This document shows positions 15,547-63,824 of a DNA stretch of 63,923 bases, in pieces. Numbering within the stretch: the first letter of the stretch is position 1; each line of letters starts with the position of its first letter. A model generated the notes under the pieces. The model was not told where the DNA came from and searched no databases. It saw only the letters and a program-made list of their open reading frames with translations. The translations under genes were made by a program, and so were the position numbers. Source of the DNA: an uncultured Clostridia bacterium (GTDB taxonomy: Bacteria; Bacillota; Clostridia; Christensenellales; CAG-314); the NCBI GenBank assembly GCA_947625185.1, contig CANQNJ010000003.1:1-63923 (forward strand), in the 5' to 3' direction.

Positions 15547-17037
15547 TCAATCGTCGAATTTGACGTCTTTGCCCAGGTCTCTCAATTGCTTGTCTATTTC
15601 GCTCTGAGAGGCGGTATTTTCCCGTTCTATGATAATTCTGCCCTTGCAGAACTGTCCTATCTCCGCTTGAAGTATCTTCTTATATTGATTCTCTATGAGC
15701 CAATAAGCCCCCTCGGAACATTTCAGCACGAAATTGCGCTGACTGTCGAAATCCACCTTGACGTCGCTCCACAATCCCGAAAGCAACGGTTCGCTGCGCT
15801 TGTCCAACGCAAGTTTGACTCCGCGCCAAATCGACTTGGGATCGGTGACGTCCACCACGTACAGCTCGCGCGTATCGGAATTGAGATTTTGCGACATATG
15901 CTCCAATCTGGTAACGCGTTTGTTGACGCCGTCCCAATCCACTTCGCCGCTGCTCGAAGCCACTTTAAGCGCGGTCGCCTCAAACAGCATCAACGGAGAC
16001 AGCGCGTATTTCAACCCCGCCTCCACATTTACGAATTGATCTATCGCATAAAGCAATTTCTTGACCGTTACGCCGTCGGCAAGCTCTTTGAGTTGTTCGT
16101 AAACGTCCTGCGGAAGCATAAGCATACCGTTTGCGTTGTCGCACACCTTTGCCGTAAGCACGTCTCTGATGTACAGCGACAGATCCTTGTTCAAACGCCC
16201 CACGTCCTTGCCTTCGGATACGAGTTTGTTTATCTCGGTGAGTATATCCGCAGTTGAATTGGAGAATATCGCCTTGGCAAGGGCAACTATGTTGTTTTTG
16301 GAAGATACTCCGAGAACGCCTAACACGTCGCCGTATTCCAGCTTGCCGCTCGATACGGAATAGCACCTGTCCGCAATGGATACGCTGTCGCGCACGCTGC
16401 CCTCTCCCGCCTGAGCGATCGCCGCAACCGCCTCTTTGGAATACTCCTTGCCCTCGGCGTCGTATATCCTCGATATATGCTCGGCAAGCAAGGGCGTAGG
16501 CACCAGACGGAAGTCGAAACGCATACAGCGTGACAAAATGGTCGCCGGTATCTTGTGAACCTCGGTAGTACACAGTATAAACAGCGCGTGCGCGGGCGGC
16601 TCTTCGAGAGTTTTGAGCAGGGCGTTGAAAGCCCCCACCGACAGCATATGCACCTCGTCGATGATGTACACCTTGTAACGTCCGTTTACGGGCGGATATT
16701 GCACTTTTTCGCGAATGTCGCGCGCGTAATCCACGCCGTTGTTGCTGGCGGCGTCCATCTCTATTATGTCAAGATTGGCGTTGCCGACCGTGTTGCATAC
16801 GGAACACTTGCCGCAGGGATTACCGTTATTCTCCTTGGCGTGCGGACAGTTAACGGCGCGGGCAAATATTTTCGCCGTGCTGGTCTTGCCCGTTCCCCGC
16901 GTTCCGCAAAACAGATAAGCGTGCGACACCTTGTCCTGCAATATCTGATTGCGCAAGGTATTGATGATGTGATCCTGCCCTATCACCTCGTCGAAGGTGG
17001 CAGGACGGTACTTTCTGTACAAAGCGACGTAACTCAT
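15547..17037 (-). CDS. dnaX: DNA polymerase III subunit gamma/tau
   Basis: YRKYRP..F.EV.GQ..GTRGTGKT..C..C..C..IDEVHMLS clamp-loader motifs. Confidence 0.95.
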   Translation of the reverse strand: MSYVALYRKYRPATFDEVIGQDHIINTLRNQILQDKVSHAYLFCGTRGTGKTSTAKIFARAVNCPHAKENNGNPCGKCSVCNTVGNANLDIIEMDAASNNGVDYARDIREKVQYPPVNGRYKVYIIDEVHMLSVGAFNALLKTLEEPPAHALFILCTTEVHKIPATILSRCMRFDFRLVPTPLLAEHISRIYDAEGKEYSKEAVAAIAQAGEGSVRDSVSIADRCYSVSSGKLEYGDVLGVLGVSSKNNIVALAKAIFSNSTADILTEINKLVSEGKDVGRLNKDLSLYIRDVLTAKVCDNANGMLMLPQDVYEQLKELADGVTVKKLLYAIDQFVNVEAGLKYALSPLMLFEATALKVASSSGEVDWDGVNKRVTRLEHMSQNLNSDTRELYVVDVTDPKSIWRGVKLALDKRSEPLLSGLWSDVKVDFDSQRNFVLKCSEGAYWLIENQYKKILQAEIGQFCKGRIIIERENTASQSEIDKQLRDLGKDVKFDD

Positions 17038-17058
17038 TTTGCCGTTTACTCCCTTGTC

Positions 17059-17631
17059 CTATCGATTTATGCTGTCCAACAGCTTCTTGCGCGCCCTTTG
17101 CAACGCGCCGTCCACCGACTTGACGCTGCGATTGAGCCGCATAGCTATATCGTCGTAACTGTACCCGTCCGCAAAGAGTCCGAGTATCTTCCGTTCCACG
17201 GGCGTAAGCCGTTCGTTGACGACGCTGACCACCCGTTCGTAATATTCCTTTTGCAGAAGATTCTCCAACGGGTTGTTGTCGCCGTCGGAAAAGTCCGCCA
17301 CCGCATCCAATTCCACATAGTTGGAAAGGGGCTTTTGTCTGACGCCGTTGCAGCGCTTGACGACGTTGAGTATCTGCCGCGAAATGCACAACTCGGCAAA
17401 CGCGGGAAAACTGCCCTTATTCTCGTCGTATCTGTTGATGGCGTATATCAAGCCCAACATACCTTCCTGCAAGAGGTCGTCCTTGTCCCCTCCCACCAGG
17501 TAGAATTTATTGGACAGCGAACGTATCAAGCCCTTGTACTCCGATACGATCTTCTCTATTGCCGCTTCGTCTCCCGACCGTGCTTTTATCAGTATCTCGT
17601 TCAAACTAACCTCTCTGCCGTACCACTTCAT
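17059..17631 (-). CDS. sigH: RNA polymerase sigma-H factor
   Basis: DLLQEGMLGLIYAI..F.AFAELCISRQI and C-terminal SVDGALQRARKKL resemble B. subtilis SigH. The ATG at 17631 overlaps the rlmB 3' end by 26 nt. An alternative TTG at 17604 follows GAGAGG just after the rlmB stop. Confidence 0.8.
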   Translation of the reverse strand: MKWYGREVSLNEILIKARSGDEAAIEKIVSEYKGLIRSLSNKFYLVGGDKDDLLQEGMLGLIYAINRYDENKGSFPAFAELCISRQILNVVKRCNGVRQKPLSNYVELDAVADFSDGDNNPLENLLQKEYYERVVSVVNERLTPVERKILGLFADGYSYDDIAMRLNRSVKSVDGALQRARKKLLDSINR

Positions 17632-18307
17632 ATAGCGCGATGCCGCATGCAACGGACGCGTTAAGCGAATTGACCTTGCCTTTAAGCCGAAGCGACACCA
17701 CACCGTCGCAACACTTCTTGGTATATGGGGATATGCCTTCGCCCTCGGCGCCGACGACTATCGCCACCGCGCCCGTAAGATCCGTTGCGGTAATTTCCTT
17801 GCCGTCCATATCCAGAGCGTACACCCATACGCCCCTGTCCTGCAACTTCTTTACGGCGTTGTTGATATTGGCGACGCGCGCTATCCTTACATGCGCAGCC
17901 GCACCCGCCGATATTCTCAACACGGTATCCGTGACGGCGACCTGACGGTTTCGGGCGATAATTATGCCGTCCACCCCCGCACATTCGCAGGAGCGTATTA
18001 TGCTGCCGAAATTGTGCGGATCGTTCAAGCCGTCCAACACCACCACAAAGGGCTGTTCGGACGCGGCAAGTATATCGTCAATGTCGCAATATTGAAAGTC
18101 CGTCACATCGGCAATGTACCCCTGATGTGCGGCGTTATTGCTCATCTTGTCCATAACCGCCCTGTCTACAAAGGTCACCTTGACGCCCTTCTGTCTGGCA
18201 AGAGCGATTATCCCGCCGTCGGCGCCTCTCTCGCAGATAAGGCTGTTGACGGTGACGTTATCCGATCTGAGCGCCTCGGCGACGCTGTTTCTTCCCTCTA
18301 TCCTCAT
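17606..18307 (-). CDS. rlmB: TrmH-family 23S rRNA 2'-O-methyltransferase (RlmB/YacO type)
   Basis: SpoU/TrmH motifs: LDGL.DPHNFG.IIRS, VVGAEG.G, LNASVA.GI.LYE. Confidence 0.85.
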   Translation of the reverse strand: MRIEGRNSVAEALRSDNVTVNSLICERGADGGIIALARQKGVKVTFVDRAVMDKMSNNAAHQGYIADVTDFQYCDIDDILAASEQPFVVVLDGLNDPHNFGSIIRSCECAGVDGIIIARNRQVAVTDTVLRISAGAAAHVRIARVANINNAVKKLQDRGVWVYALDMDGKEITATDLTGAVAIVVGAEGEGISPYTKKCCDGVVSLRLKGKVNSLNASVACGIALYEVVRQRG

Positions 18308-18693
18308 AACTTTGTTTCCAATATTTGCAGCAGTCTTTCCTTTTGTCCCGTCAGATACAGATATCCGAGTACCGCCTCGAACCCCGTCGCCTTGCGATAA
18401 TCCGAAGCCGACTGATTCTTCGCCTTGTGATGAGGACTGCCGTTGCGGCCGCGATGATATACGGAAAGCTCCGTTTCGGTAAGCTCCGACGACAGCTTCT
18501 CCGCCAATGCCGCCTGCGCAGACGCCTTGACGGTATCGGACGCCAATCTGTGCAGAACGTACGGCTTGACGTCCAATTCTCCCACCAACTTGCGGCGGAT
18601 ATACAAACTGTGTACCGCGTCTCCTATATACGCAAGCGTAAGCGCGTTGAGCGAAAGCGCCTCCTTGTCGCTCATAGTGTCGAAGAAATCCAT
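18304..18693 (-). CDS. mrnC: Mini-ribonuclease 3
   Basis: LAYIGDAV..LY.R and FEAVLGYLYL motifs. Conserved position upstream of rlmB. Confidence 0.85.
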   Translation of the reverse strand: MDFFDTMSDKEALSLNALTLAYIGDAVHSLYIRRKLVGELDVKPYVLHRLASDTVKASAQAALAEKLSSELTETELSVYHRGRNGSPHHKAKNQSASDYRKATGFEAVLGYLYLTGQKERLLQILETKL

Positions 18694-50345: not shown

Positions 50346-50516
50346 AGATTATCTCCTTGTGCGCACATTTCTCTTTATACAGTATATCATATTTTTTACT
50401 TGCATTCAATAGCAATAATATAATTTAAGCCAAAAAACGCCGCAAAAGGGTGTATTTCATAGGGAATCGAAAAAAACAAAATTTTTTATCGGAATACACC
50501 TTCAAGCGAGTCAAAT

Positions 50517-50549
50517 AAAGAGGTCGAGGATTTTACTCTCGACTTCTTT
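50517..50549 (-). terminator. Hairpin downstream of rhuM: possible operon terminator and island edge
   Basis: AAAGAGGTCGAG (50517-50528) pairs with CTCGACTTCTTT (50538-50549) with one G-T pair. An imperfect inverted repeat GGTGTATTTC/GGAATACACC lies at 50449-50458 and 50491-50500 just beside it. Confidence 0.45.
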
Positions 50550-50599
50550 ATTTATATTTGTGGCGATATTATATAGCCGATTTATCTTGATGTCCGAAA

Positions 50600-51598
50600 C
50601 TACTTCTTGTCTTTTTTTGAAAGTTCTTCAATACAATCAAGATATGCTTTTTCTACATCGCTTAAAGTTTTTGCTTGATATTTTTTGTATTCTCTTTTTG
50701 CTTTGTCAATTGCCTGCTCGTGCGTGACGGTGCCTGCACCAAGCAAGAGTTGTTCACCGCTCATTGTGAGGATTCTATCAAGATGGTCTGCCCAATCCGC
50801 CATAGTCATGGGTTGTTCGCGCTCGGCTTGCCGCTCGGCAAAATCAAGATATCCTGAAACAATTTGACCAAGCGAGCGCAATTCCTTTTCGCTGAGATAG
50901 TTTTTTGCCACCGTCACATCGCTCAAATGAGGCCTATCTCCCTTGAATGTTGTTAGTCCCATAAAATCTTTTTCGGCATCTGCGCGAGAATAAATCACCT
51001 CAGCCGCAGTATGACCGTGTACGGCATAATGAATTTTGTTTTGAACCTTTTTGAAGAACTCAACCGAAATCTCAGCATTCGGATCATAGTCTATACTTGT
51101 GGCATAGATGTCAAGTATTTGGCGATAGAATACTTTCTCCGAGGCACGAATATCGCGGATTCGCTCTAACAATTCTTTGAAATATCCGCCACCACCAAGT
51201 TCTTTCAGTCGGTCGTCATCAAGTGTAAACCCTTTGCGGATATATTCATTGAGTCGTTTTGTCGCCCACTGACGGAATTGCGTTCCGCGCAAAGATTTCA
51301 CACGATATCCGACCGAAATTATCACGTCAAGGTTGTAATAGTCCACCCGATATGTTTTGCCGTCCGAAGCAGTTGTTGCAAAATTTGCAACAACTGCCCC
51401 GCGATCAAGCTCGCCTTCTTCAAAAATATTCTTGATATGGCGGGAAATCGTAGATTTATCTCTGTCAAACAGCATCGCCATTTGGTCAAGTGTAAGCCAC
51501 ACCGTTTCCCCGTGAAACAATACATCAACCGCCACATTATTATCTTCGGTCTTGAAAATTATAAAATGTTGATTGCCATCGAACGAATTCTTATCCAT
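50600..51598 (-). CDS. rhuM: RhuM-family protein
   Basis: EKVFYRQILDIYATSIDYD..FFKKVQNKIHYAVHGHTAAEVIYSRAD..VAKNYL...EL..L..IVS.YLDFAE.QA matches the RhuM family as I remember it. It starts 13 nt after the hsdR stop. Confidence 0.8.
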   Translation of the reverse strand: MDKNSFDGNQHFIIFKTEDNNVAVDVLFHGETVWLTLDQMAMLFDRDKSTISRHIKNIFEEGELDRGAVVANFATTASDGKTYRVDYYNLDVIISVGYRVKSLRGTQFRQWATKRLNEYIRKGFTLDDDRLKELGGGGYFKELLERIRDIRASEKVFYRQILDIYATSIDYDPNAEISVEFFKKVQNKIHYAVHGHTAAEVIYSRADAEKDFMGLTTFKGDRPHLSDVTVAKNYLSEKELRSLGQIVSGYLDFAERQAEREQPMTMADWADHLDRILTMSGEQLLLGAGTVTHEQAIDKAKREYKKYQAKTLSDVEKAYLDCIEELSKKDKK

Positions 51599-51611
51599 AA
51601 TTTTTCCTCCC

Positions 51612-54587
51612 TCAATCGCCTTTTCTCAATTCTTTATAGATCTCACTTGCAAAAATTCCCAATACTTCCCTCTTGATCTCGTCGTTATTCAAAAGCAAGG
51701 AGAAGAAATCTTGATTTTGAGCGAGGCCTTCAATCAGCGCGTCGTCTATATCGTCGAAATAAGTAAATTCAAAGTCCTTTTCGGAATTGTTCCTCGCGCT
51801 TGTACGCAGCTTGTCGGACTTCAAAAGCAGATCTCTGATCTGCAACATTGCTTTGATCACCACGTCGCTATCATACGATTTGCCCGTTCTGCTATTGATC
51901 TCCGCAATTATAACAGACAGCCTCTCTTGCTTATCTTCCGGCAAAGTTATGGTATCTGCCATGGGCAATTTTATCACAGGATCGGAATGGAGTTTTTCTT
52001 TCACGTGAGTTTCACCCTTCTTCTGTACGAATTGAGAGGCTTTTATTTTGCCATCCAAATTGTAGCCGCCGCCCGGCTGTTTTATATCGATGTACGAAAG
52101 CAAATATGACACAAACAAATACTTCTTGTGCAGTTCGACGTCCTCAAAGCAAGACACTTGAATTAGAAACTCATAAAACCTCACAAAATGACGCATGACG
52201 GCAACTATTTCAAGTTGTTTCGACACATCGCCGGATTGCTCCAAACGAGCCTGCGCGCGCTTAAAATAGTACGTCAACTTTTGTTTGTCCCGCGGCGTCA
52301 CCTCTTTATACAAGAGTGCAACGGCGCAGTCGATATCCGATGGATCAAGGATATAATATCCATCGAGTTTCGCCTCCAAATCATAAACAGCCGTAGGCGT
52401 TACGGAATTGGCAAGCAGCGTCGTGGTGTAATATGGCTTGAACGCATCCACAATCTCGTCATATGTATTGACAAAATCAAGCACGAAGGTCTTTTTGTCA
52501 AATGGCGGGCAGATGCGATTCAAGCGAGAGAGCGTTTGCACGGCATTGACGCCGCGCAATTTTTTGAGGACATACATGGCGCACAGCTTTGGCTGGTCGA
52601 AACCCGTTTGATATTTGTTTGCAACAAGCAAGACTTTGTTCTCATCCTTTTCAAACTCTCGCGGGAGCCGTTCTTCCGAAAACCCGTTGATAAAACCTTC
52701 CGTATACTCGGTCTCTTCATCGGGGAGCTTAACCTTTCCCGAAAATGCCACAAGGGATCTGATGTCGGTATATCCTTTCTTTTCAATATATTCTTCAAAT
52801 GCGCGATGATATTTTACAGCGCCTGCGCGGGAAGCGGTGATAACCATTGCTTTCGCCATGCCGCCGAGTTCGGGCATAACCGTGGTGCGAAAGTGTTCGA
52901 TGATCACTTCGATACGTTGCGCAATATTGGTTTCGTGCAATTCCACAAAACGAGCGATCTGCCGTTTCGCTTCAACCGTTTTGCACCGAGGATCTTCTTC
53001 GATTTCTTTGTTGATTTGATAATAGGTTTTATATTCGGTGAAATTTTGCAAAACGTCGAGAATAAAGCCTTCTTCAATTGCCTGTTTCATCGAATAGATA
53101 TGGAACGCTTGCTTTTGGCCCTTTGGATTTTGTCTGCCGAAAAGTTCCAGAGTCGTCGCTTTGGGCGTTGCGGTAAATGCAAATATGGATATATTGGGCT
53201 GTTTCCCATTGCGTGCGATCTCGTCTACTATCAAATCTTCCGCGTCAATCGCGTCGACGTCCACATCTCCCTTTCCCAACGCCATTGTGATTGCCGCCAT
53301 ATCTTTGCCTGCCGTTGAGGAATGGGCCTCGTCAATGATAACCGCAAAGGTTTTGTTTTTTAATCCCGCAACCGTATCAACGATATACGGGAACTTTTGA
53401 ATTGTCGTAGCAATGATTTTTGTATTGCCTGTCAGAGCGATCGCAAGATCGGCGGATGTGCATTTGTCGTCCATAACGCGGATAAGTCCCGTCTTATGTT
53501 CCATGCCGAGGATAGCCGCTTGCAGTTGCCTGTCCACAACAACTCTGTCCGTGACGATGACTATGTTGTCAAAGATTATCTTATCATCGCTGTCATGCAA
53601 AGACGCCAGGCGATGAGCAAGCCATGCGATAGAATTGGTTTTGCCCGAGCCTGCGCTGTGCTGGATAAGATAATTTTGCGAGGTTTTATTTGCTTTCACA
53701 TCGGCAAGCAGACGACGAATGACGTCAAGTTGATGATATCTTGGAAAAATGATATTTTCTTTCACCTTCTTTTTGCCTGTCAACTCATCTGTTTCCTCTT
53801 TTATTTCGATGAACATAAACTTTGTGATAAGCTCAACAAGCATATCCTTTTTCAAAATGTCCGCCCACATATAATAGACGCTGTATTTGTCATCATATGC
53901 GGGATTGCCCTTGCCTGCGTCTATGCCCTCGCCGCTGCCCATATTGAATGGCAAAAAGAAGGTGTCTTCGCCATTCAATTTTGTCGTCATATAAACTTCG
54001 TTGAGATCCATGGCAAAGTTGACAAGGCACCCCGCCTTAAAACGGAACAGCCGCGTTTTCGGGTTGCGTTGAGTGCGATATTGATAGATCGCGTCCATAT
54101 AGGATTGTCCCGCAAAGTTGCATTTAAGCTCAAATGAAATGACGGCAAGTCCGTTGATGAACACAACAAGATCGACGCGCTCATCATCGCTCGCCCACAC
54201 CTCCTCCATGACAGAAAAGATGTTCTTATTGTATTTTGCGAGCAAATCGGCATTGAATGTCGTGGCAGGTTTGGTATAGAGCAGATCCAGTTTGTAATTT
54301 GCGATCTCTACGCCGTGCTTGAGGACGGACAAAAGGCTTCCCCGCGCTTTTGTGATCTCCGCATTGAGAAAGTTGATGATGGTCTCTTCTGCCTTGTCCT
54401 TGAATATCTTGACAAGCGCCGCCATTGTATCGGGCTGGGTGTCGTTGAGAAACCGAAACAGCATTTCGCGGTCAATGGCAAACGCGCGGTCGAAATGCGC
54501 CGCCTTGCGTTCGATATAGCCGTTTTCTGTCACAAGCCTTTCAATGATATATTTTTGATATTCTTTTTCGGACACGATATTGTTCAT
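51612..54587 (-). CDS. hsdR: Type I restriction enzyme, R subunit
   Basis: 991 aa with an N-terminal nuclease region, helicase motif I HSAGSGKT and motif II VIIDEAHSS, and later SF2 motifs. Confidence 0.9.
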   Translation of the reverse strand: MNNIVSEKEYQKYIIERLVTENGYIERKAAHFDRAFAIDREMLFRFLNDTQPDTMAALVKIFKDKAEETIINFLNAEITKARGSLLSVLKHGVEIANYKLDLLYTKPATTFNADLLAKYNKNIFSVMEEVWASDDERVDLVVFINGLAVISFELKCNFAGQSYMDAIYQYRTQRNPKTRLFRFKAGCLVNFAMDLNEVYMTTKLNGEDTFFLPFNMGSGEGIDAGKGNPAYDDKYSVYYMWADILKKDMLVELITKFMFIEIKEETDELTGKKKVKENIIFPRYHQLDVIRRLLADVKANKTSQNYLIQHSAGSGKTNSIAWLAHRLASLHDSDDKIIFDNIVIVTDRVVVDRQLQAAILGMEHKTGLIRVMDDKCTSADLAIALTGNTKIIATTIQKFPYIVDTVAGLKNKTFAVIIDEAHSSTAGKDMAAITMALGKGDVDVDAIDAEDLIVDEIARNGKQPNISIFAFTATPKATTLELFGRQNPKGQKQAFHIYSMKQAIEEGFILDVLQNFTEYKTYYQINKEIEEDPRCKTVEAKRQIARFVELHETNIAQRIEVIIEHFRTTVMPELGGMAKAMVITASRAGAVKYHRAFEEYIEKKGYTDIRSLVAFSGKVKLPDEETEYTEGFINGFSEERLPREFEKDENKVLLVANKYQTGFDQPKLCAMYVLKKLRGVNAVQTLSRLNRICPPFDKKTFVLDFVNTYDEIVDAFKPYYTTTLLANSVTPTAVYDLEAKLDGYYILDPSDIDCAVALLYKEVTPRDKQKLTYYFKRAQARLEQSGDVSKQLEIVAVMRHFVRFYEFLIQVSCFEDVELHKKYLFVSYLLSYIDIKQPGGGYNLDGKIKASQFVQKKGETHVKEKLHSDPVIKLPMADTITLPEDKQERLSVIIAEINSRTGKSYDSDVVIKAMLQIRDLLLKSDKLRTSARNNSEKDFEFTYFDDIDDALIEGLAQNQDFFSLLLNNDEIKREVLGIFASEIYKELRKGD

Positions 54588-54590
54588 AAG

Positions 54591-55571
54591 TCACCTCACA
54601 TAGGATCTAATTCTCTTGATTAAACGCTCGGCAAACATTAGAGCAATTTCATCTGTCGATTGCCCTTGCGAACTAATGTATTGGATTTCCGCAATTTCAG
54701 GATATTTTTCTTCTAATTGACTCATCGTAACATTATGTAAAATTGGAAGAATAATTCTCTGCCCATCGCTATTTTGTCGTGCCAATAGTTCATAAAGTTC
54801 TCGCTCAGTCCATTCACGCCCAAAAAAGTTCTCGGAAATAACAATGATTGCAAATTCAGTTTTTTGCACGCCTTCTAAAATTTTCTCTTTCCAATGATCT
54901 CCCCATTTAAGCGTGTCTTTATCATAGAAAATGGATATACCAAGCCTATCAAGCGATTTTTTCAATTCATCGACATAATCTATCTTATCTTTATTTGCAT
55001 GGGACAAAAACAAATCGTATTCTACAAATGGTTCTATTGCACTATGTTCTACTTGTTTACCTCGTTGATTCTCATCAAAATAATGAATCCCCTCATAAGT
55101 TATAATAAAACTTACATGGTTTCGTCCAACTGATTTTAGCTTTTCGATCAAACCTTCATTCTGCAATTTCTTAAATGTTTCAATGCCAAAAGGTGCTAGC
55201 GGATAAGACAAAACCAGCGGGTCACTACAATCAACTTTGCTTAAAAGCACACTTAACAACTCTTCATATTCTTTAAGACTATCAGACACTCCATGCTCAA
55301 GCCAAAACTCATTGTCCTTTTTTATACTACGCAAACATGCTACAAGTGAACTTATTGTATCCTTCTCCCTATGCGCAATAATTTCTTGTATTCTTTTATA
55401 CAAAGGATGTGATACCAAATATTTATGGCTATAAATATCAACATCGTTTATCCATTCGTCCAATGTTGTTTTGCCCTCTACAGAGAGAAAATAGTTAGCA
55501 TTGGTATTGACAATAGCCTTAAACTTCCTTTCACGTTGAAGTAGTTCGTCAATCTGTATTCTTTGAGACAT
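54591..55571 (-). CDS. TIR-domain protein with an uncharacterised ~185-aa N-terminal domain, embedded between hsdS and hsdR
   Basis: The C-terminal ~135 aa are YDLFLSHANKDK..VDELKKSLDRLGISIFYDKDTLKWGD......I..G......AIIVISENFFGREWTERELYELL...ILPILH, a TIR_2-type pattern that includes W-x3-E (the Glu codon is at 54798-54800). RBS AGGAGG lies 9 nt upstream of ATG 55571, and the ATG lies 1 nt after the hsdS stop. The stop lies 3 nt before the hsdR ATG. Confidence 0.8.
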   Translation of the reverse strand: MSQRIQIDELLQRERKFKAIVNTNANYFLSVEGKTTLDEWINDVDIYSHKYLVSHPLYKRIQEIIAHREKDTISSLVACLRSIKKDNEFWLEHGVSDSLKEYEELLSVLLSKVDCSDPLVLSYPLAPFGIETFKKLQNEGLIEKLKSVGRNHVSFIITYEGIHYFDENQRGKQVEHSAIEPFVEYDLFLSHANKDKIDYVDELKKSLDRLGISIFYDKDTLKWGDHWKEKILEGVQKTEFAIIVISENFFGREWTERELYELLARQNSDGQRIILPILHNVTMSQLEEKYPEIAEIQYISSQGQSTDEIALMFAERLIKRIRSYVR

Positions 55572-55572
55572 T

Positions 55573-56832
55573 TTACACAACCTCCTTTTTGCCGGTGACA
55601 TATTCAAAGATAAGGGACTTTTTGTAGGTTTCGAGGGTTTCGATCTGCGACTGTTTTTGCGAGATCAATTCGTCGATTTGCGCGCACTTTTCGTCGAGAT
55701 AGTCAGCGATTGCTTGTTGCTCGGGAAGAGGCGGAATTAAAATTAAAGTATTTCCAAGTGCCTCAGCGGGTAAATCCCACTGTCCCTCTCTAATCCCGCC
55801 TGATAACCTTCTAAATTCCGTCGTATATGTACGATTTCTCATTAAAAAGTGAAAATAGCGTTTATCTATCAATGCGTCTGAAAATTCATAGACATAATAT
55901 GCCGGACTGACTATGCCTTCGTAGTTGGAAACCGCGACAGAACCCTGCCACGCTTTCATTTTGTTCACGACAAAATCGCCAACTCGAACATAACGATAAT
56001 TTGATGTGTCCTCCGAAGTGACATTGAAATTATCGTCCCTGCTGTCCTTGGGAACTACTCCATAATCGCGATACAAAGACAATACTTGTTTCTCTGCTTG
56101 ATTTTTAATACCGCGCAATTGCAAATGATATTTAAATTTATGCACTTGCCAATGGGCGGGAACTTGAGGCATCCACCCAGCCCCGCTATCCTTCATGGGG
56201 ACATTCGGATCAAGGCCATGTGTGACGGCTTCGGTGATGACGGAACGCTTGTATTTCTCCAACGTGTCTATCTGCGCTTCAATATCCGCTTTCAAACCGT
56301 CAATTTTCTCGCACTCCTTATCCAAAAAATCCGCAATGCGCTGCTGCTCGTCAATCAGCGGAATCGGCATTCTCACATCAAACAAATCATCTTTTCCCAA
56401 ATTACTTCTTACACCGTCATCTCCAAGCGCATTGAAAATTTGATTTTTCCAAAGCACATAAAAGTACTTTTCGGCATAGCGGGGAGACATACCCTTCTCT
56501 GCTCGCAAAATAATGTATGTGGGCGAAACAATTCCCGTAAAGGGGGACAAGCCCACACGACTCGTCGAAACGTTCTGTAAATCTATCAATTTGAAAACCA
56601 ATTCATCTTTGCGGAGAATTTGGTATGTTTCAAATTTATCGGGTTGTAAACCTGTATTGTCGTCTTTCGAGCGCTTCACCACATTTTGCATCGTCAAAGC
56701 AAGCCGGTCATAATCATCACAATAACAGCCGACGATTTCCTTTTTATAGCGGAATTTATGCTTGACTTTTACGACTTCCCACGTTTCGGGAATCTCGCCC
56801 ACCCATTCAATTTTGCTGTCTTTCATATTCAA
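55573..56832 (-). CDS. hsdS: Type I restriction-modification specificity subunit
   Basis: Two target-recognition domains are each followed by a conserved helix (LIDEQQRIADFLDKECEKIDGL...LEKYKRSVITEAVT and LPEQQAIADYLDEKCAQIDEL...LETYKKSLIFEYVTGK). Confidence 0.9.
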   Translation of the reverse strand: MNMKDSKIEWVGEIPETWEVVKVKHKFRYKKEIVGCYCDDYDRLALTMQNVVKRSKDDNTGLQPDKFETYQILRKDELVFKLIDLQNVSTSRVGLSPFTGIVSPTYIILRAEKGMSPRYAEKYFYVLWKNQIFNALGDDGVRSNLGKDDLFDVRMPIPLIDEQQRIADFLDKECEKIDGLKADIEAQIDTLEKYKRSVITEAVTHGLDPNVPMKDSGAGWMPQVPAHWQVHKFKYHLQLRGIKNQAEKQVLSLYRDYGVVPKDSRDDNFNVTSEDTSNYRYVRVGDFVVNKMKAWQGSVAVSNYEGIVSPAYYVYEFSDALIDKRYFHFLMRNRTYTTEFRRLSGGIREGQWDLPAEALGNTLILIPPLPEQQAIADYLDEKCAQIDELISQKQSQIETLETYKKSLIFEYVTGKKEVV

Positions 56833-56841
56833 AATCTATCC

Positions 56842-58404
56842 TTAATCAAACAAACTTATCATTTCCTCAAGTAGTAGTTTGAGATTCTCAAAGACAACTT
56901 CCAACGTCTGCGACTCTAAACTACATAAATAGTCACAGCACCCCATCTTATCAAATTCTTCAAACTCTTGCTTCTCTCCATACTTACCCTTTTTTGCTTT
57001 TTTGTTATAGAAATGAGAAATATCTATATCATCTAAAATAAGAGCATTCTCTATTCCTACATCTATCCCCTTAGAATTTTTTTGTTCTGCTATATGGCGA
57101 ATATAAAGGTTGCCCACATTTTCATCTTTTTTGTTTGTATCACTATCATATAACAATATTATTTTTATTTGCAAGTCCTGCGAAAGTAAAAATTGATATG
57201 CTTGATTCAATGCAGTACAACCTGTATTTTCTTCTTGTCCATTTTTATTAAAATGACCTATCCATTTCACTTCAAAGGGCAAATTCAATCCATATACTTC
57301 AGCCGCACGTTTAATATATTTTTCATCTGTTCTTCCTTCTACATATAAAATTGGTGTAGTGGTTGAAAAATCATATACATTGAACGCGTCCTCAACGGCC
57401 TTTGTGCTTTCACAGGAATAATATTCCGGATTGTCTTCAACCACAATTCTTCCGTCATCACTTTTCTTCAAAACGATAACCTTGTCATTGTATCGATTAT
57501 TGCTATGAATGATAAACGGCGAATGCGTTACGGCAAAAATTTGCGAAGTTTGCTGACCTTTTTCATTCGTAAAAATTTTCTTATAGTAATTCAATATCTT
57601 CTTTTGCCACTCGGGATGCAAGCTGATTTCGGGCTCATCAAGTAACACCAATGCGCCCATCAATGCATTTTTATCTTTAAGTAAATAGCCCCCGCGATAT
57701 ACTATTTGTTTTTCGCCCGAGCTTAGCATGTTCAAATAAATCTTGTGTCCATATATGTCATTAAAATAAACTGATTTTTGCGCTGAGTTATTATCAACGC
57801 CACCCCAAGTTAGTTTTTTACCAAACATATAATCATAAGCACTTATGAATCTTAATATCCTTTTATCAGTAGGGATTTTGTCTATCGGTCGACCTACACG
57901 TCTTGCTTCCCTTACCTCAGATGTAAACTCATTTGAATCCATATTTTGAATGTCTATAAGCAACTGTTCAATTTCTCTCGCCAAATTCGCGTTTGATTTA
58001 CGAGACTCATTATTTTGATCTATATCTAATGCGGTCACGGTATTTATCATACGATCTTTTCTATAATTAATATCTACATCGGAAAAGATAGCATTGGGTA
58101 TATACTGAAACCCTCCAAAATCTATTGTACTGCCGCCATGTATATTGATTTCTTTACAGAATGTGCCCCTCTGAGAATCTATTAGTATGTCCGCTTCATA
58201 TCGCCCGGCCGATATAGGATCATAGTCTCCGAAAACCGCATAAATCATGTTTAATAGTGTTGATTTCCCAGCGCCATTTTCTCCTGCTATGATTATAGTA
58301 TCAACAGGATTTCCGTTCTTGTCAGTAAAGTCAAACTCCATGTCTCCAAAAAGATAATGATTATTGCATCTTAATTTCAATAATCTTGCGCCAAGTACCT
58401 CCAT
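56842..58404 (-). CDS. ABC-type ATPase fused to a TOPRIM/DUF4435-like nuclease domain (OLD-family, fused RloA-RloB or PARIS-like), embedded between hsdM and hsdS
   Basis: It has Walker A GENGAGKST, signature-like LSSGEKQ, Walker B LVLLDEPE and H-loop VTHSP. The C-terminal ILYVEGRTDEKY and LLYDSDT are TOPRIM-type acidic motifs. RBS GGAGG lies 8 nt upstream of ATG 58404, inside the hsdM 3' end. Confidence 0.75.
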   Translation of the reverse strand: MEVLGARLLKLRCNNHYLFGDMEFDFTDKNGNPVDTIIIAGENGAGKSTLLNMIYAVFGDYDPISAGRYEADILIDSQRGTFCKEINIHGGSTIDFGGFQYIPNAIFSDVDINYRKDRMINTVTALDIDQNNESRKSNANLAREIEQLLIDIQNMDSNEFTSEVREARRVGRPIDKIPTDKRILRFISAYDYMFGKKLTWGGVDNNSAQKSVYFNDIYGHKIYLNMLSSGEKQIVYRGGYLLKDKNALMGALVLLDEPEISLHPEWQKKILNYYKKIFTNEKGQQTSQIFAVTHSPFIIHSNNRYNDKVIVLKKSDDGRIVVEDNPEYYSCESTKAVEDAFNVYDFSTTTPILYVEGRTDEKYIKRAAEVYGLNLPFEVKWIGHFNKNGQEENTGCTALNQAYQFLLSQDLQIKIILLYDSDTNKKDENVGNLYIRHIAEQKNSKGIDVGIENALILDDIDISHFYNKKAKKGKYGEKQEFEEFDKMGCCDYLCSLESQTLEVVFENLKLLLEEMISLFD

Positions 58405-58405
58405 T

Positions 58406-60494
58406 TTATTTACCTCCGAACAGTTTTTCGATCCCTTCGCTGACGCTTCTTTCAAGCTCCATGAATTTTGCGGCAAGCTCGTCGCTCGGTTGCGGCTTTT
58501 GATATTTGTAGAAATAACGTGTGAACGGGATTTCCGCGCCGACCTTTATCACAGGCTTCTTTGCGCTCAAGTTCTCCTCAAAAAACGCCACCGCGTCCGG
58601 GACATATGGCAACACTTCACGCGCCATATAATCGTCAATATCTTCCTCGTATTTAACAATTTCGGTGTTCTTTGTTTCTTTGTCGTAAATGACGTTGCCC
58701 TTCTTGTCCTTTTGGATCTCGGCAGACTTGTCCATAATGGAAAGTCCGTTGGCTATTTTCTCAAGCAACTTTTTATCTACATCCAAAATAGTGGCAAGGT
58801 ATTCGAGGAAAGGTGCAGGAGAAAAAAAACACCTTGTCTGAAATATTGGCGCGGAGTTTTGCCAAAATCGCGTCGTACAACGGTTTGTTGTCGGAAAACT
58901 TTTCGAGCGTCTTTTTGTCCTTGTCGGTGATGGCTACGCCCATATTTTCAAGTTCTGCGACCTTCCCCTCATCATAAATCGAATTCAGCGCGCCTTTCAT
59001 CAACATTTGCTCGATGCGCTCCTCGGTGATTGCATAGCTGCGTTGCAATGGCTGATATACCGCATATTCGCGATAGAGGAATTTTTCATTCTTGAATATC
59101 TTGCAATATTCGTTTTCAACAAAATCGGCATAGAGATGCGTCACCGACTTTCTGTCTTCGGGCGCGATCTCATTCTTTTTGTTGCCGACTGCCTTGCGGA
59201 GCTTGTGATAAAATGTTTCGGCATTGATGAGTTGGATCTTGCCCCTCCTCTCTGCGCGTTTATTCTTTGATATTATCCACACATAGGTCTGAATGCCTGT
59301 GTTGTAGAAAAGGTCGGTGGGCAGCGCAATGATCGCCTCGATAAGATCGCTTTCCAAAAGCCAACGACGAATCTGACTCTCTCCCGATCCCGTATCTCCG
59401 TTGAACAGCGGCGACCCGTTTTCAATGATAGCCGCTCTGCCGTTCTTTTCGTCCAACTTATCGACAGCCGATTGCAAAAAGATCATTTGCGAATCGCCGC
59501 CGCTCGGAAGTCCATGTCCCCAACGTCCTATTTCTCCGCGTTCGTATTCGTCGCGGACCGCTTTTTCCTGCCCCTCTTTTACATGCTCGCCAGACCACGG
59601 CGTGCCAAAAGGAGGATTTTCAATCACAAAGCGCATGCGAATATCGCTGAAACAGTCCGTCTTGAAGGTGTCAATGTGCATGAAGTTTTCCGCATTCTGC
59701 CCTTTTATCAACATCTCCGCAAGCCCAACCGCATAGGAAACACCCATCAGTTCTTGCCCGAACAACCTTACATCTGCCGTAGGATTGTAGTGTTTGATAT
59801 AGTTGTAAGCGGTTGAAAGCATGCCGCCCGTTCCGCAAGCCTGATCGCATACGGTTATGACCTTCCCATCGGCGAAAATGTCGTCGCACCCTTCCGCCAT
59901 GAGGATCTCGACAAGCAGCTTTATAATGTCCCTGCCCGTATAATATTGTCCAGCGTCAACATTTTGGAAAAATCTGCCGATAAGATTTTCAAATATGTAG
60001 CCCATGCGGATGCTGTCAAACTTTTCAATGCTCACATCAAGCTCCGAAAACGCTTTGACAACAGTATATAGACACCCGTCTTTGTTCATTTTGTCAATAT
60101 GCTTTGTGAGTTCAAGTTCATTCAAAATGCTTTGCACATTTGAAGAAAAACCATTGATATAGGACTTGAAATTTTCGGCAATGTTGTCGGAATCATTGCA
60201 TAGCTCCGCAAGCGTATAATTACTTGTACAATAAAATTGATACCCCGATTTGCGACAAAGCGCTTTGGGAGGAAGACTCGGATTCTTATTATACTCAGAA
60301 ACAACTTTTGCCTTTGTCTTTTCAAGAGCGCACTCAAAACGCCGAATGATAGTCATCGGAATAATTACATCGCCATACTTATCGGGCATATATGAGCCGC
60401 GCAACTTGTTTGCGATGGACCAAATAAAGTTGGCTTCCTGCGTTATGTCGATGGGACTGTCATCCCACATTGTGTCTAAAATCTTGTTTGGCAT
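58406..60494 (-). pseudogene. hsdM: Type I R-M methyltransferase subunit, interrupted by a frameshift in a T8 tract
   Basis: ORF 58773..60494 carries the HsdM N-domain, DQACGTGGML (motif I) and ENPPFG (motif IV), and ends in out-of-frame junk (FFFSCTFPRIPCHYFGCR*). ORF 58406..58786 encodes the typical C-terminal EIPFTRYFYKY tail. Removing one T from the T8 run joins them (..ISDKVFFSPAPFLEYLATILDVDKKLLEK..) into about 695 aa. Confidence 0.85.
58822..58829 (-). repeat. Homopolymeric tract at the hsdM frameshift (A8 on plus, T8 on the coding strand)
   Basis: gagAAAAAAAAcacc was counted directly. Confidence 0.95.
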
Positions 60495-60540
60495 ATTCGC
60501 TCCTGCAATGAGATTTTTCGCTTATAATAAACCATTTTGA

Positions 60541-60569
60541 ATTTTATCATTTTTTCGCATAAAAGTCAA
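60541..60569 (-). promoter_or_regulatory. Candidate promoter of the hsdM operon
   Basis: The minus strand reads TTGACT (60569-60564), a 17-nt spacer ending in TGa, then TAAAAT (60546-60541). RBS AGGAG precedes ATG 60494. Confidence 0.55.
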
Positions 60570-60890
60570 TTATTAAACATAATGCGACAAGACTCAAGCA
60601 AGTAATCTATGAACGCTACAACGAATATGATCTTACGCTTCTAACTCTGACATAAAATTATCTGTTGACCTAATTTTTGCTATTAAGAATACGATCACTT
60701 TCTATCATTAACTATACCCATTCGCCTCGTCTTGAAATAGCTCCATTCACGATTATTTTTGCAACAAAATAATCTCTTCCCTCCCAAAGCGGGTTTCCCG
60801 CTTGTAGAGTGTCGAAAGTGCGTTGTGGCACTTTCCTTATCCTGCCTCCCCATTTTTGGCAATTTGCCACAGATTTTGCATGTATTAAAT

Positions 60891-61200
60891 AAAATTTTTT
60901 TTATTTTAGACCCTTCGGTTTTGCCTCAAAATCGCTCTTCTTATTAGAGGGGTGTTGAACGGCAGAATTCTCGACGGAGGAGTCGCTGGAGCGCGGCAAA
61001 AAAATTTTTTTGAAGAATTTTGCGTTTAGCCCCTTCGGTTTTGCCCGAAAAACGCCCCTTTAAGTGAGGGGTATGTACGACAGCAAGCATGGCGCGGTGG
61101 CACTTACAACCTTCGAAGAAAAATTTTTTGAAAAATTTTCAATTTAGGGGGTACGATTTTGCCAAAAAATCGCCCTTTTAAGTGAAGGGATATAAAGGAG
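60891..61200 (+). repeat. Three tandem degenerate ~110-120-nt direct repeats (leader-like units)
   Basis: The three units start at about 60891, 60999 and 61119. Each reads A/T-run, TTTAG(A/C/G)CCC.., TTTTGCC..AAAA.CGC(C)C.T.TTAAGTGA(G/A)GGG. The third ends in AAAGGAGG and a 4-codon ORF (MNTS*). Confidence 0.7.

Positions 61201-62138: not shown

Positions 62139-63824
<1,686 letters not shown>

Follow-up and report, generated by a model that had tools for sequence, protein, structure and literature searches.

The window analysed here, a 63,923-nucleotide stretch (contig CANQNJ010000003.1) from an uncultured Clostridia bacterium, carries on its minus strand, between positions 50600 and 60569, a compact type I restriction-modification (R-M) operon with additional genes set between and behind its hsd genes. 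The map of open reading frames (ORFs) and the domain scans gave the order hsdM (frameshifted), ABC-ATPase/TOPRIM, hsdS, N-domain+TIR, hsdR and rhuM, in agreement with a first-pass annotation of this DNA, which had placed all six genes on the minus strand in the same way. The most likely explanation, to which we assign a probability of roughly 0.6, is that a type I R-M operon, situated on a low-GC mobile island, serves as the carrier of independently acquired single-gene defence cassettes in three cargo slots. The slot between hsdM and hsdS would hold an OLD/PARIS-like ABC-ATPase-TOPRIM nuclease, the slot between hsdS and hsdR an AbTir-like TIR NADase whose N-terminal module is rare and evolves fast, and the slot 3' of hsdR a RhuM protein. 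We prefer this reading because the content of the slots varies among relatives, because the cassettes also occur on their own, and because their G+C content differs from that of the hsd genes.

That the slots are swappable is seen in an unbiased, HsdR-based sample of 36 loci, about 20 of which belong to the same family as the window operon (HsdR at least 50% identical). In these about 20 operons, the hsdS-hsdR slot contains a TIR gene in three cases, an unrelated ORF of 130-150 amino acids (aa) in about nine and nothing in about seven, and the ATPase is present in none. The closest of them, L189 (HsdR 76% identical), lacks both cassettes and is otherwise collinear with the window; homology between the two is lost where hsdM ends, at the stop codon of hsdS and at the start of hsdR. 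Within the same hsd family, which is characterised by an HsdM of about 695 aa and an HsdR of about 990 aa, the hsdM-hsdS slot is either empty (L081, L189) or occupied by a KAP NTPase (L082-87) or a 275-aa unknown ORF (L088). The hsdS-hsdR slot contains the TIR gene, the TIR gene plus a 434-aa ORF, a 133-aa unknown ORF (L189) or nothing, and the position after hsdR is taken by RhuM, DUF2971 or a Gabija-like pair. In more distant hsd relatives, GmrSD, Abi_2, DUF4357 and DUF4268/NucS-like genes are found at the same positions. The ORF of 130-150 aa, which has no Pfam match, is an uncharacterised embedded gene that recurs among the close hsd relatives: it lies between hsdS and hsdR in L189 (8603-9001), L247, L253 and about six more IMG/VR loci.

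The base composition of the two inner cassettes sets them apart from their carrier. The G+C content is 0.348 for the ATPase gene and 0.349 for the TIR gene, compared to 43-45% for the hsd genes and rhuM and 52.6% for the chromosomal flank. The island as a whole has a G+C of 0.38-0.45 across 50.4-62 kb versus 0.526 in the flank. It is adjoined by a large serine recombinase gene with a C-terminal DUF4368, which ends 99 bp from the contig end, and the low-GC island is probably a mobile element. Genes for TnpV, a MobL relaxase and excisionase-like proteins are carried by related hsd loci. Together with the recombinase next to the island, they suggest that such R-M carriers travel on mobilisable transposon-like elements of Clostridia.

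Relatives of the ATPase gene are found both inside and outside hsd operons. Of seven clusters looked up, four (46-59% identical) sit between hsdM and hsdS, in operons that belong to different hsd families (HsdM of 510-591 aa, HsdR of 1024-1050 aa). The other three (44-49% identical) lie outside hsd operons: one on a small integrase/Rep element (L184), one alone among housekeeping genes (L185) and one in a defence island beside an hsd system, outside the hsd operon itself (L186). A scan of metagenomes for this family yielded four hsd-linked members and five that are not, the latter with AAA_14/DUF4143, C5 methylase and NACHT/STAND proteins as neighbours. A similar scan of viral contigs returned one full-length relative and otherwise only distant standalone ATPases, and distant relatives located on prophage contigs or on a plasmid of C. 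perfringens stand alone. No hsd neighbour was seen for about half of the family members sampled, which falls short of the almost exclusive embedding described for PrrC (Payne et al. 2024). None of the other sampled loci carried both the ATPase and TIR cassettes, or both plus RhuM.

Operons of this ATPase-carrying kind often hold small unknown genes between hsdS and hsdR (ORFs of 190, 177, 158 and 267 aa, or an ORF6N gene together with a 298-aa ORF), and genes with a Bro-N domain stand beside the ATPase gene (L095, 9422-11807; L101, 10924-12730; L097, 6336-7985). All of these are candidates for further embedded defence genes.

The relatives of the TIR gene were collected in a scan of one genome per species, which returned 35 close relatives. 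Sixteen of these are hsd-linked, as judged with four hsd query sets, and 11 show the exact hsdS-TIR-hsdR order within the same hsd family, including those of Ruminococcus albus 8 and [Ruminococcus] faecis JCM 15917. The remaining relatives have no hsd gene within 10 kb; they are neighbours of a type III R-M system with AbiGi/AbiGii (L010) or of C5 methylases, or are located on MobL-relaxase elements. In metagenomes, full-length homologues occur in the arrangements hsdM-hsdS-TIR-hsdR, hsdM-KAP_NTPase-hsdS-TIR-hsdR-DUF2971 and GmrSD-hsdM-(275 aa)-hsdS-TIR-(434 aa)-hsdR-OLD-like ATPase-UvrD. The TIR domain retains 57-67% identity to the window copy even in operons with an HsdR of only about 23% identity, and across the same comparison the N-terminal module varies between 34% and 55% identity. 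No conserved partner gene was seen across the sampled TIR loci. The first-pass annotation had considered a TIR gene in the hsdS-hsdR slot, together with an ATPase-TOPRIM gene in the hsdM-hsdS slot, to be undescribed. In the literature searched we found no paper that describes or dissects a TIR gene between hsdS and hsdR, but this arrangement recurs in at least 11 species-representative genomes.

The last of the metagenome arrangements (L088) deserves a separate mention. Its TIR-carrying hsd operon is followed, at 15719-18408, by an OLD-like ATPase-TOPRIM and a UvrD-like helicase, which form a Gabija-like pair, and is preceded by GmrSD, so that four defence modules are arranged in one co-oriented block.

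A different explanation of the embedding, and the one initially proposed for this locus, is that one or both of the embedded proteins keep watch over the type I R-M layer and set off abortive infection once a phage neutralises restriction. We regard this as possible, although on the unlikely side. The concept of guardian systems is established (EcoSal Plus review PMC12707154). Members of both families show a strong enrichment within hsd operons, as the initial proposal required, and the tight junctions and the shared ribosome-binding context of the window genes are compatible with stoichiometric co-expression. This explanation comes in two versions, which fare differently. Version (a) follows the example of PrrC and EcoprrI: binding to the R-M complex would keep the protein latent. 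The TIR gene does occupy the hsdS-hsdR slot, which we take to be that of prrC in EcoprrI. Nevertheless, a PrrC-like latent guard is disfavoured because the cassettes occur in unrelated hsd families as well as outside hsd operons, are foreign to the hsd genes in composition and are absent from most close relatives. The same TIR domain is found in the hsd families with the roughly 23% identical HsdR and also beside type II and type III R-M genes, standalone copies of both ATPase and TIR exist, and 17 of the about 20 close hsd relatives are without the TIR gene and all are without the ATPase gene. Furthermore, if the hsdM frameshift is real, both cassettes are intact beside a broken methyltransferase gene. 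These observations, as well as the unrelated cargo in the slots and the fact that the two cassettes were never seen together elsewhere, argue against a dedicated guard that has co-evolved to watch over the R-M complex.

Version (b) has the protein itself recognise anti-restriction proteins (for example Ocr, ArdA or Stp), in the manner of PARIS. The ATPase is related to AriA of PARIS in both sequence and structure, version (b) is compatible with all the data, and the unusually high embedding rate of the ATPase mildly favours it. On the other hand, the C-terminal domain of the ATPase is not DUF4435. Of the initial proposal, a PARIS-like sensing by the ATPase-TOPRIM protein that involves no contact with R-M is possible. 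A more specific form of the idea is that hsd-embedded sublineages of one or both cassettes have become true R-M guardians, the ATPase-TOPRIM protein as a PARIS-like sensor of type I inhibitors and/or the TIR protein through an N-terminal module that reads the state of HsdS/HsdR and thereby causes NAD+ depletion. We consider this form unlikely. If it held for the TIR protein, this would be the first restriction guardian with a TIR output.

Several observations weigh against the swappable-cassette reading that we prefer. The embedding rate exceeds that of generic defence-island clustering, with about half of the sampled ATPase relatives residing inside hsd operons, and the positions are not random: across four hsd families, the ATPase gene mostly stands immediately 5' of hsdS, and the TIR gene almost always comes directly after hsdS. 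Such a rate might stem from a functional link with type I R-M. Sampling was of modest size and drew in part on metagenome contigs with short flanks. As hsd genes were detected by single-sequence phmmer with the four query sets, some of the hsd-negative calls could be misses. The TOPRIM assignment of the ATPase has no significant sequence match of its own and is based on residues, predicted strands and Foldseek. Finally, the expression and phenotype of the cassettes are deduced from sequence.

The first cassette encodes a member of a large, well-conserved family of about 520-530 aa, the best 120 clusters of which (clustered at 90% identity) are 43-89% identical over their full length. Pfam and PADLOC searches matched AAA_21 (4e-18), AAA_15 (3e-15), PtuA, AriA (5.7e-25) and AriAB (6e-25), and a sequence search of the PDB matched AriA (1.6e-13). 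The Walker A motif, the signature LSSGEKQ, the Walker B motif DEPE and the H-loop are invariant across the family, as are the C-terminal acidic residues E356, D420xD422 and E452. In the AlphaFold2 (AF2) model, which has a predicted local distance difference test score (pLDDT) of 80.6, strands are predicted at residues 352-355 (beta-1) and 415-419 (beta-3). This places E356 just after beta-1 and D420xD422 after beta-3 of a beta-alpha-beta domain and so corresponds to the layout of a TOPRIM domain. The best Foldseek matches are PtuA and the retron Ec83/Ec78 ATPases, and AriA also scores. Full-length Foldseek alignments were obtained with OLD (6p74; E 2e-11 over 499 columns), GajA (8u7i) and the retron Eco8 effector (9lpa). 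Of the ATPase-TOPRIM identity proposed in the first-pass annotation, the ATPase part is upheld by the profile searches and the TOPRIM part is supported by the invariant residues, the predicted strands and Foldseek.

Like OLD, GajA and the Eco8 effector, the window protein is a single chain that starts with an ABC ATPase and ends with a TOPRIM domain, whose acidic metal site is made of a Glu after beta-1 and a DxD after beta-3. The TM-scores to these proteins are low (0.28-0.32) because the domain arrangement differs. Furthermore, the operon has no UvrD/GajB or retron partner. The C-terminal domain taken alone gave nothing significant in Pfam, PADLOC or PDB sequence searches, and no TOPRIM family was matched, including the OLD-like_TOPRIM family PF20469. 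An alignment by hhalign of the whole ATPase family with the Gabija-like OLD protein of L088 matched the ATPase core and nothing beyond it.

PARIS consists of the ABC ATPase AriA and the DUF4435 TOPRIM protein AriB and is also found as a single-gene fusion; it is activated by Ocr, its output being tRNA cleavage, and its detection rule uses the DUF4435 (PF14491) TOPRIM domain (Rousset et al. 2022). The window protein resembles it in joining an AAA_15/AAA_21 ABC ATPase to a TOPRIM-type nuclease in one unit, in its AriA similarity and in the VEGxxD motif at beta-1. It differs in length (520 aa versus the 694 positions of the fused AriAB profile, which covers only residues 243-453 of the ATPase) and in that Pfam finds no DUF4435 in its C-terminal domain at E up to 10. 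An hhalign comparison of this domain with a DUF4435 protein reached a probability of 1.2% and aligned only the VEGxxD motif, and we do not claim PARIS membership. An identity with PrrC is not supported either: no HEPN/PrrC family matched the ATPase, and its invariant residues are acidic and of TOPRIM type. PrrC and the window protein are alike in that both are ABC-ATPase proteins, of a presumed abortive-infection type in our case, embedded in a type I R-M operon. However, PrrC couples its ATPase to a HEPN anticodon nuclease, whereas the window protein has a TOPRIM-type domain and sits in the hsdM-hsdS slot; in addition, both window families are also free-standing. In terms of its predicted architecture, the protein thus appears OLD/PARIS-like and not a demonstrable member of either family. 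This ATPase-TOPRIM family of roughly 520 aa has no dedicated Pfam or PADLOC model.

The TIR protein consists of a helical part (residues 1-95), a winged-helix-like part (100-165) and an AbTir-type TIR domain (185-326) in its AF2 model (pLDDT 76.6). In both sequence and structure, the closest matches of the TIR domain are the AbTIR NAD+ hydrolase (1.3e-35), BtpA/TcpB, PdTIR and BtTir, and it is 35-39% identical to the bacterial TIR NADases AbTir, BtpA and PdTIR. Together with the TIR_2 match, this bears out the earlier identification of the domain. The motif REWTE(K/R)EL is invariant and aligns with DWTNYEL of AbTir; its Glu, which is invariant in 23 homologues, we take to be the catalytic residue by analogy with AbTir E208. 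The catalytic motifs are intact in both embedded proteins, and NADase activity is predicted for the TIR protein. Its combination of an N-terminal non-TIR module with a C-terminal TIR domain and a conserved Glu motif is shared with AbTir, BtpA and PdTIR and with SpbK-like single-protein TIR defences. Unlike in these proteins, the N-terminal module belongs to a rare family whose genes often share an operon with hsdS and hsdR.

The N-terminal 185 aa had no match in Pfam or PADLOC, and Foldseek with the whole model returned TIR domains only. The module was found in 32 clusters among 1.84 billion representatives, and wherever its partner could be identified, it was always a TIR domain, either of the TIR_2 or of the CAP12/Pycsar type. 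In P0253 and P0263, for example, the helical N-terminal module is fused to a CAP12/Pycsar effector TIR domain (PF10137). Because the module is fused to this second TIR family as well, we suggest that it is a TIR-specific control or assembly domain. A separate observation concerns enterobacterial conjugative plasmids (hits H1-H15), which encode a protein annotated with a DUF1883 domain that matches the TIR domain over a TIR-like stretch with about 37% identity. This protein is possibly a plasmid-borne relative.

As AbTir and BtTir, its closest solved relatives, reportedly produce cyclic ADP-ribose (cADPR) isomers, the TIR protein might instead be a ThsB-type generator of such a molecule in a Thoeris-like system, with the effector encoded elsewhere in the genome. 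The PADLOC ThsB profile does match it at 2.9e-25. However, none of the six operon genes is a ThsA-like partner (SIR2, Macro or SLOG), and the sampled TIR loci share no conserved partner. Hence, we rejected a Thoeris assignment and consider a Thoeris-like role very improbable.

In the carrier reading, the hsd promoter would drive the cassettes, with a separate GGAGG ribosome-binding site for each, and each would act as a self-contained sensor-effector. The ATPase may sense a phage cue and unleash the TOPRIM nuclease in an OLD/PARIS-like, ATP-gated manner, an anti-restriction protein being one plausible trigger. The N-terminal module of the TIR protein would control the assembly of TIR domains, leading to NAD+ breakdown. 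The resulting immunity would be layered, with restriction acting first and growth arrest or cell death serving as back-up, and it would need no physical contact between the cassette products and the R-M enzyme.

The layout of the operon (Table 1) is consistent with such shared expression. The true start of the ATPase gene is the ATG at 58404 and that of the TIR gene the ATG at 55571, the latter being called in the same way in a public protein collection. The junctions are tight: 1 nucleotide (nt) between hsdM and the ATPase gene, 1 nt between hsdS and the TIR gene, 3 nt between the TIR gene and hsdR, and 13 nt between hsdR and rhuM. The hsdS gene begins 9 nt after the ATPase gene if its start is TTG and 15 nt after it if the start is ATG. 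The first-pass claim that no junction exceeds 13 nt therefore holds for all five with the TTG start but not for this junction with the ATG start. Both embedded genes are preceded, 8-9 nt upstream of their starts, by GGAGG ribosome-binding sites that lie within the 3' ends of hsdM and hsdS, respectively, which agrees with the strong sites predicted there. The candidate promoter at 60569-60541 has 10 of 12 consensus matches, is the joint best on the minus strand when scored by consensus match alone and lies 47 nt upstream of the hsdM ATG. On the other side, the hairpin 3' of rhuM (50513-50553) is the sole strong hairpin between 50300 and 61000, and G+C rises to the host level just past it. With one good promoter upstream and one hairpin terminator downstream, the six genes share the anatomy of a single operon, as had been proposed, and on this anatomy their co-transcription is plausible.

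Table 1. Features of the R-M island and its surroundings (positions in the window).
Feature	Position	Strand	Description
hsdM	58406-60494	-	HsdM_N + N6_Mtase; type I methyltransferase subunit; ORFs of 573 aa and 126 aa
ABC-ATPase/TOPRIM, embedded cassette 1	56842-58404	-	520 aa; Pfam AAA_21 and AAA_15
hsdS, specificity subunit	55573-56832	-	Methylase_S x2; PADLOC Specificity_I 1.1e-88, full length
N-domain+TIR, embedded cassette 2	54591-55571	-	326 aa; TIR_2 2.6e-19
hsdR, restriction/translocase subunit	51612-54587	-	991 aa, intact; HSDR_N, ResIII/SWI2_SNF2, T1R_D3-like; TIGR00348 3.7e-55
rhuM	50600-51598	-	Virulence_RhuM 4e-112; PADLOC candidate PDC-S05 3.5e-179; position after hsdR
Candidate sigma-70-type promoter	60541-60569	-	TTGACT, 17 nt spacer, TAAAAT with TG extension
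Palindromic hairpin, likely bidirectional terminator	50513-50553		17-bp stem, A/T runs on both sides
Large serine recombinase	62166-63824	+	Resolvase, Recombinase, Zn_ribbon_recom, DUF4368; at contig end

The carrier itself is recognisably of type I. The HsdM domains are present (N6_Mtase 3.9e-52; HsdM_N 1e-22), and the PADLOC profile MTase_I PDLC03029 matches positions 6-500 (1.7e-193) and 548-659 (8.7e-29) of the hsdM product. HsdS has two target-recognition domains, and HsdR has nuclease and helicase domains. Only two of the three subunit frames are intact, as hsdM is split by a +1 frameshift due to one extra T in a run of eight (T8) at 58822-58829. With a run of seven (T7), the frame encodes 695 aa and can be aligned over its entire length with intact homologues (695-698 aa), which have no T run at the matching site. 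The extra base is either an assembly error or a lineage-specific, possibly slippage-prone mutation. Phase variation at the run is unlikely because the homologues lack the T tract. If the frameshift is real, methylation and restriction would both be off, and the cassettes may still function.

The split gene, with its run of T residues that intact homologues lack, and the foreign composition of an island that adjoins a recombinase at the contig end could also mean that the whole locus is a decaying remnant, that is, an inactivated R-M operon on a mobile element whose embedded genes are passengers that serve no current function. However, this is the sole lesion in the operon: hsdS, hsdR, rhuM and both cassettes are full length with all their catalytic residues intact, and T8 may be a single-base homopolymer error, which is a common assembly artefact. 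We therefore find the remnant explanation improbable.

The concept of extra genes inside type I R-M operons is not new, contrary to the novelty claim made for the locus. Most of the genes located within Hma, BREX, DISARM and type I R-M systems proved to be independent defence systems, a pattern set out under the name 'guilt-by-embedding', and an ABC-ATPase-TOPRIM fusion, HEC-04, was validated (Payne et al. 2024, bioRxiv 10.1101/2024.01.29.577857). The PDC candidates of PADLOC were, as a class, derived from genes that lie within BREX, DISARM or type I R-M systems (Payne et al. 2024). Multi-level loci combining R-M, PrrC-like and RhuM/DOC components were proposed even earlier, with RhuM-like proteins as toxins alongside R-M and an ABC-ATPase effector (Anantharaman et al. 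2013, PMC3710099). The window genes resemble those of the embedded catalogue in being additional same-strand genes inside an hsd operon, and two of them match its candidates. RhuM matches PDC-S05 over its full length (protein residues 9-331 versus profile positions 5-327 of 330). The TIR protein matches PDC-S66 (2e-41) with its TIR part alone (profile positions 139-277 of 282), and its N-terminal 185 residues fall outside the match. The ATPase shares with HEC-04 the architecture of a single-chain ABC-ATPase-TOPRIM fusion, but it forms its own family of about 520 aa, and no HEC model is among the best 25 of the 126 PADLOC matches listed for it. The Campylobacter rlo loci and those of Anantharaman et al. 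2013 similarly have variable accessory ORFs between hsd genes, although the gene families differ.

The gene combination in the window is unusual; the type of system is already known, the TIR arrangement occurs frequently in public genomes, and PADLOC already includes a related TIR type. The locus is a clean, compact example of type I R-M operons as docking platforms for swappable abortive-infection cassettes. It also draws attention to two uncharacterised families, both abundant among the Clostridia of gut and rumen, that merit testing, namely the ABC-ATPase-TOPRIM protein and the N-module TIR protein that recurs between hsdS and hsdR. If either of them responded to anti-restriction proteins, it would lengthen the short list of R-M guardians (PrrC, PARIS). 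If they act autonomously, as the comparative data suggest, they would be additions to the catalogue of embedded defence genes and would support guilt-by-embedding as a discovery method.

A scan of 50-63.9 kb against Rfam gave no match, including in a set of three direct repeats that lie at 60878-61189, between the hsdM promoter and the small ORFs upstream of it. The repeats fold no better than shuffled sequences (z = -0.9) and have no further copy in the window. They have a core of about 74 nt and a spacing of 118-120 nt, and each of them consists of an A/T-rich stretch followed by short GC hairpins.

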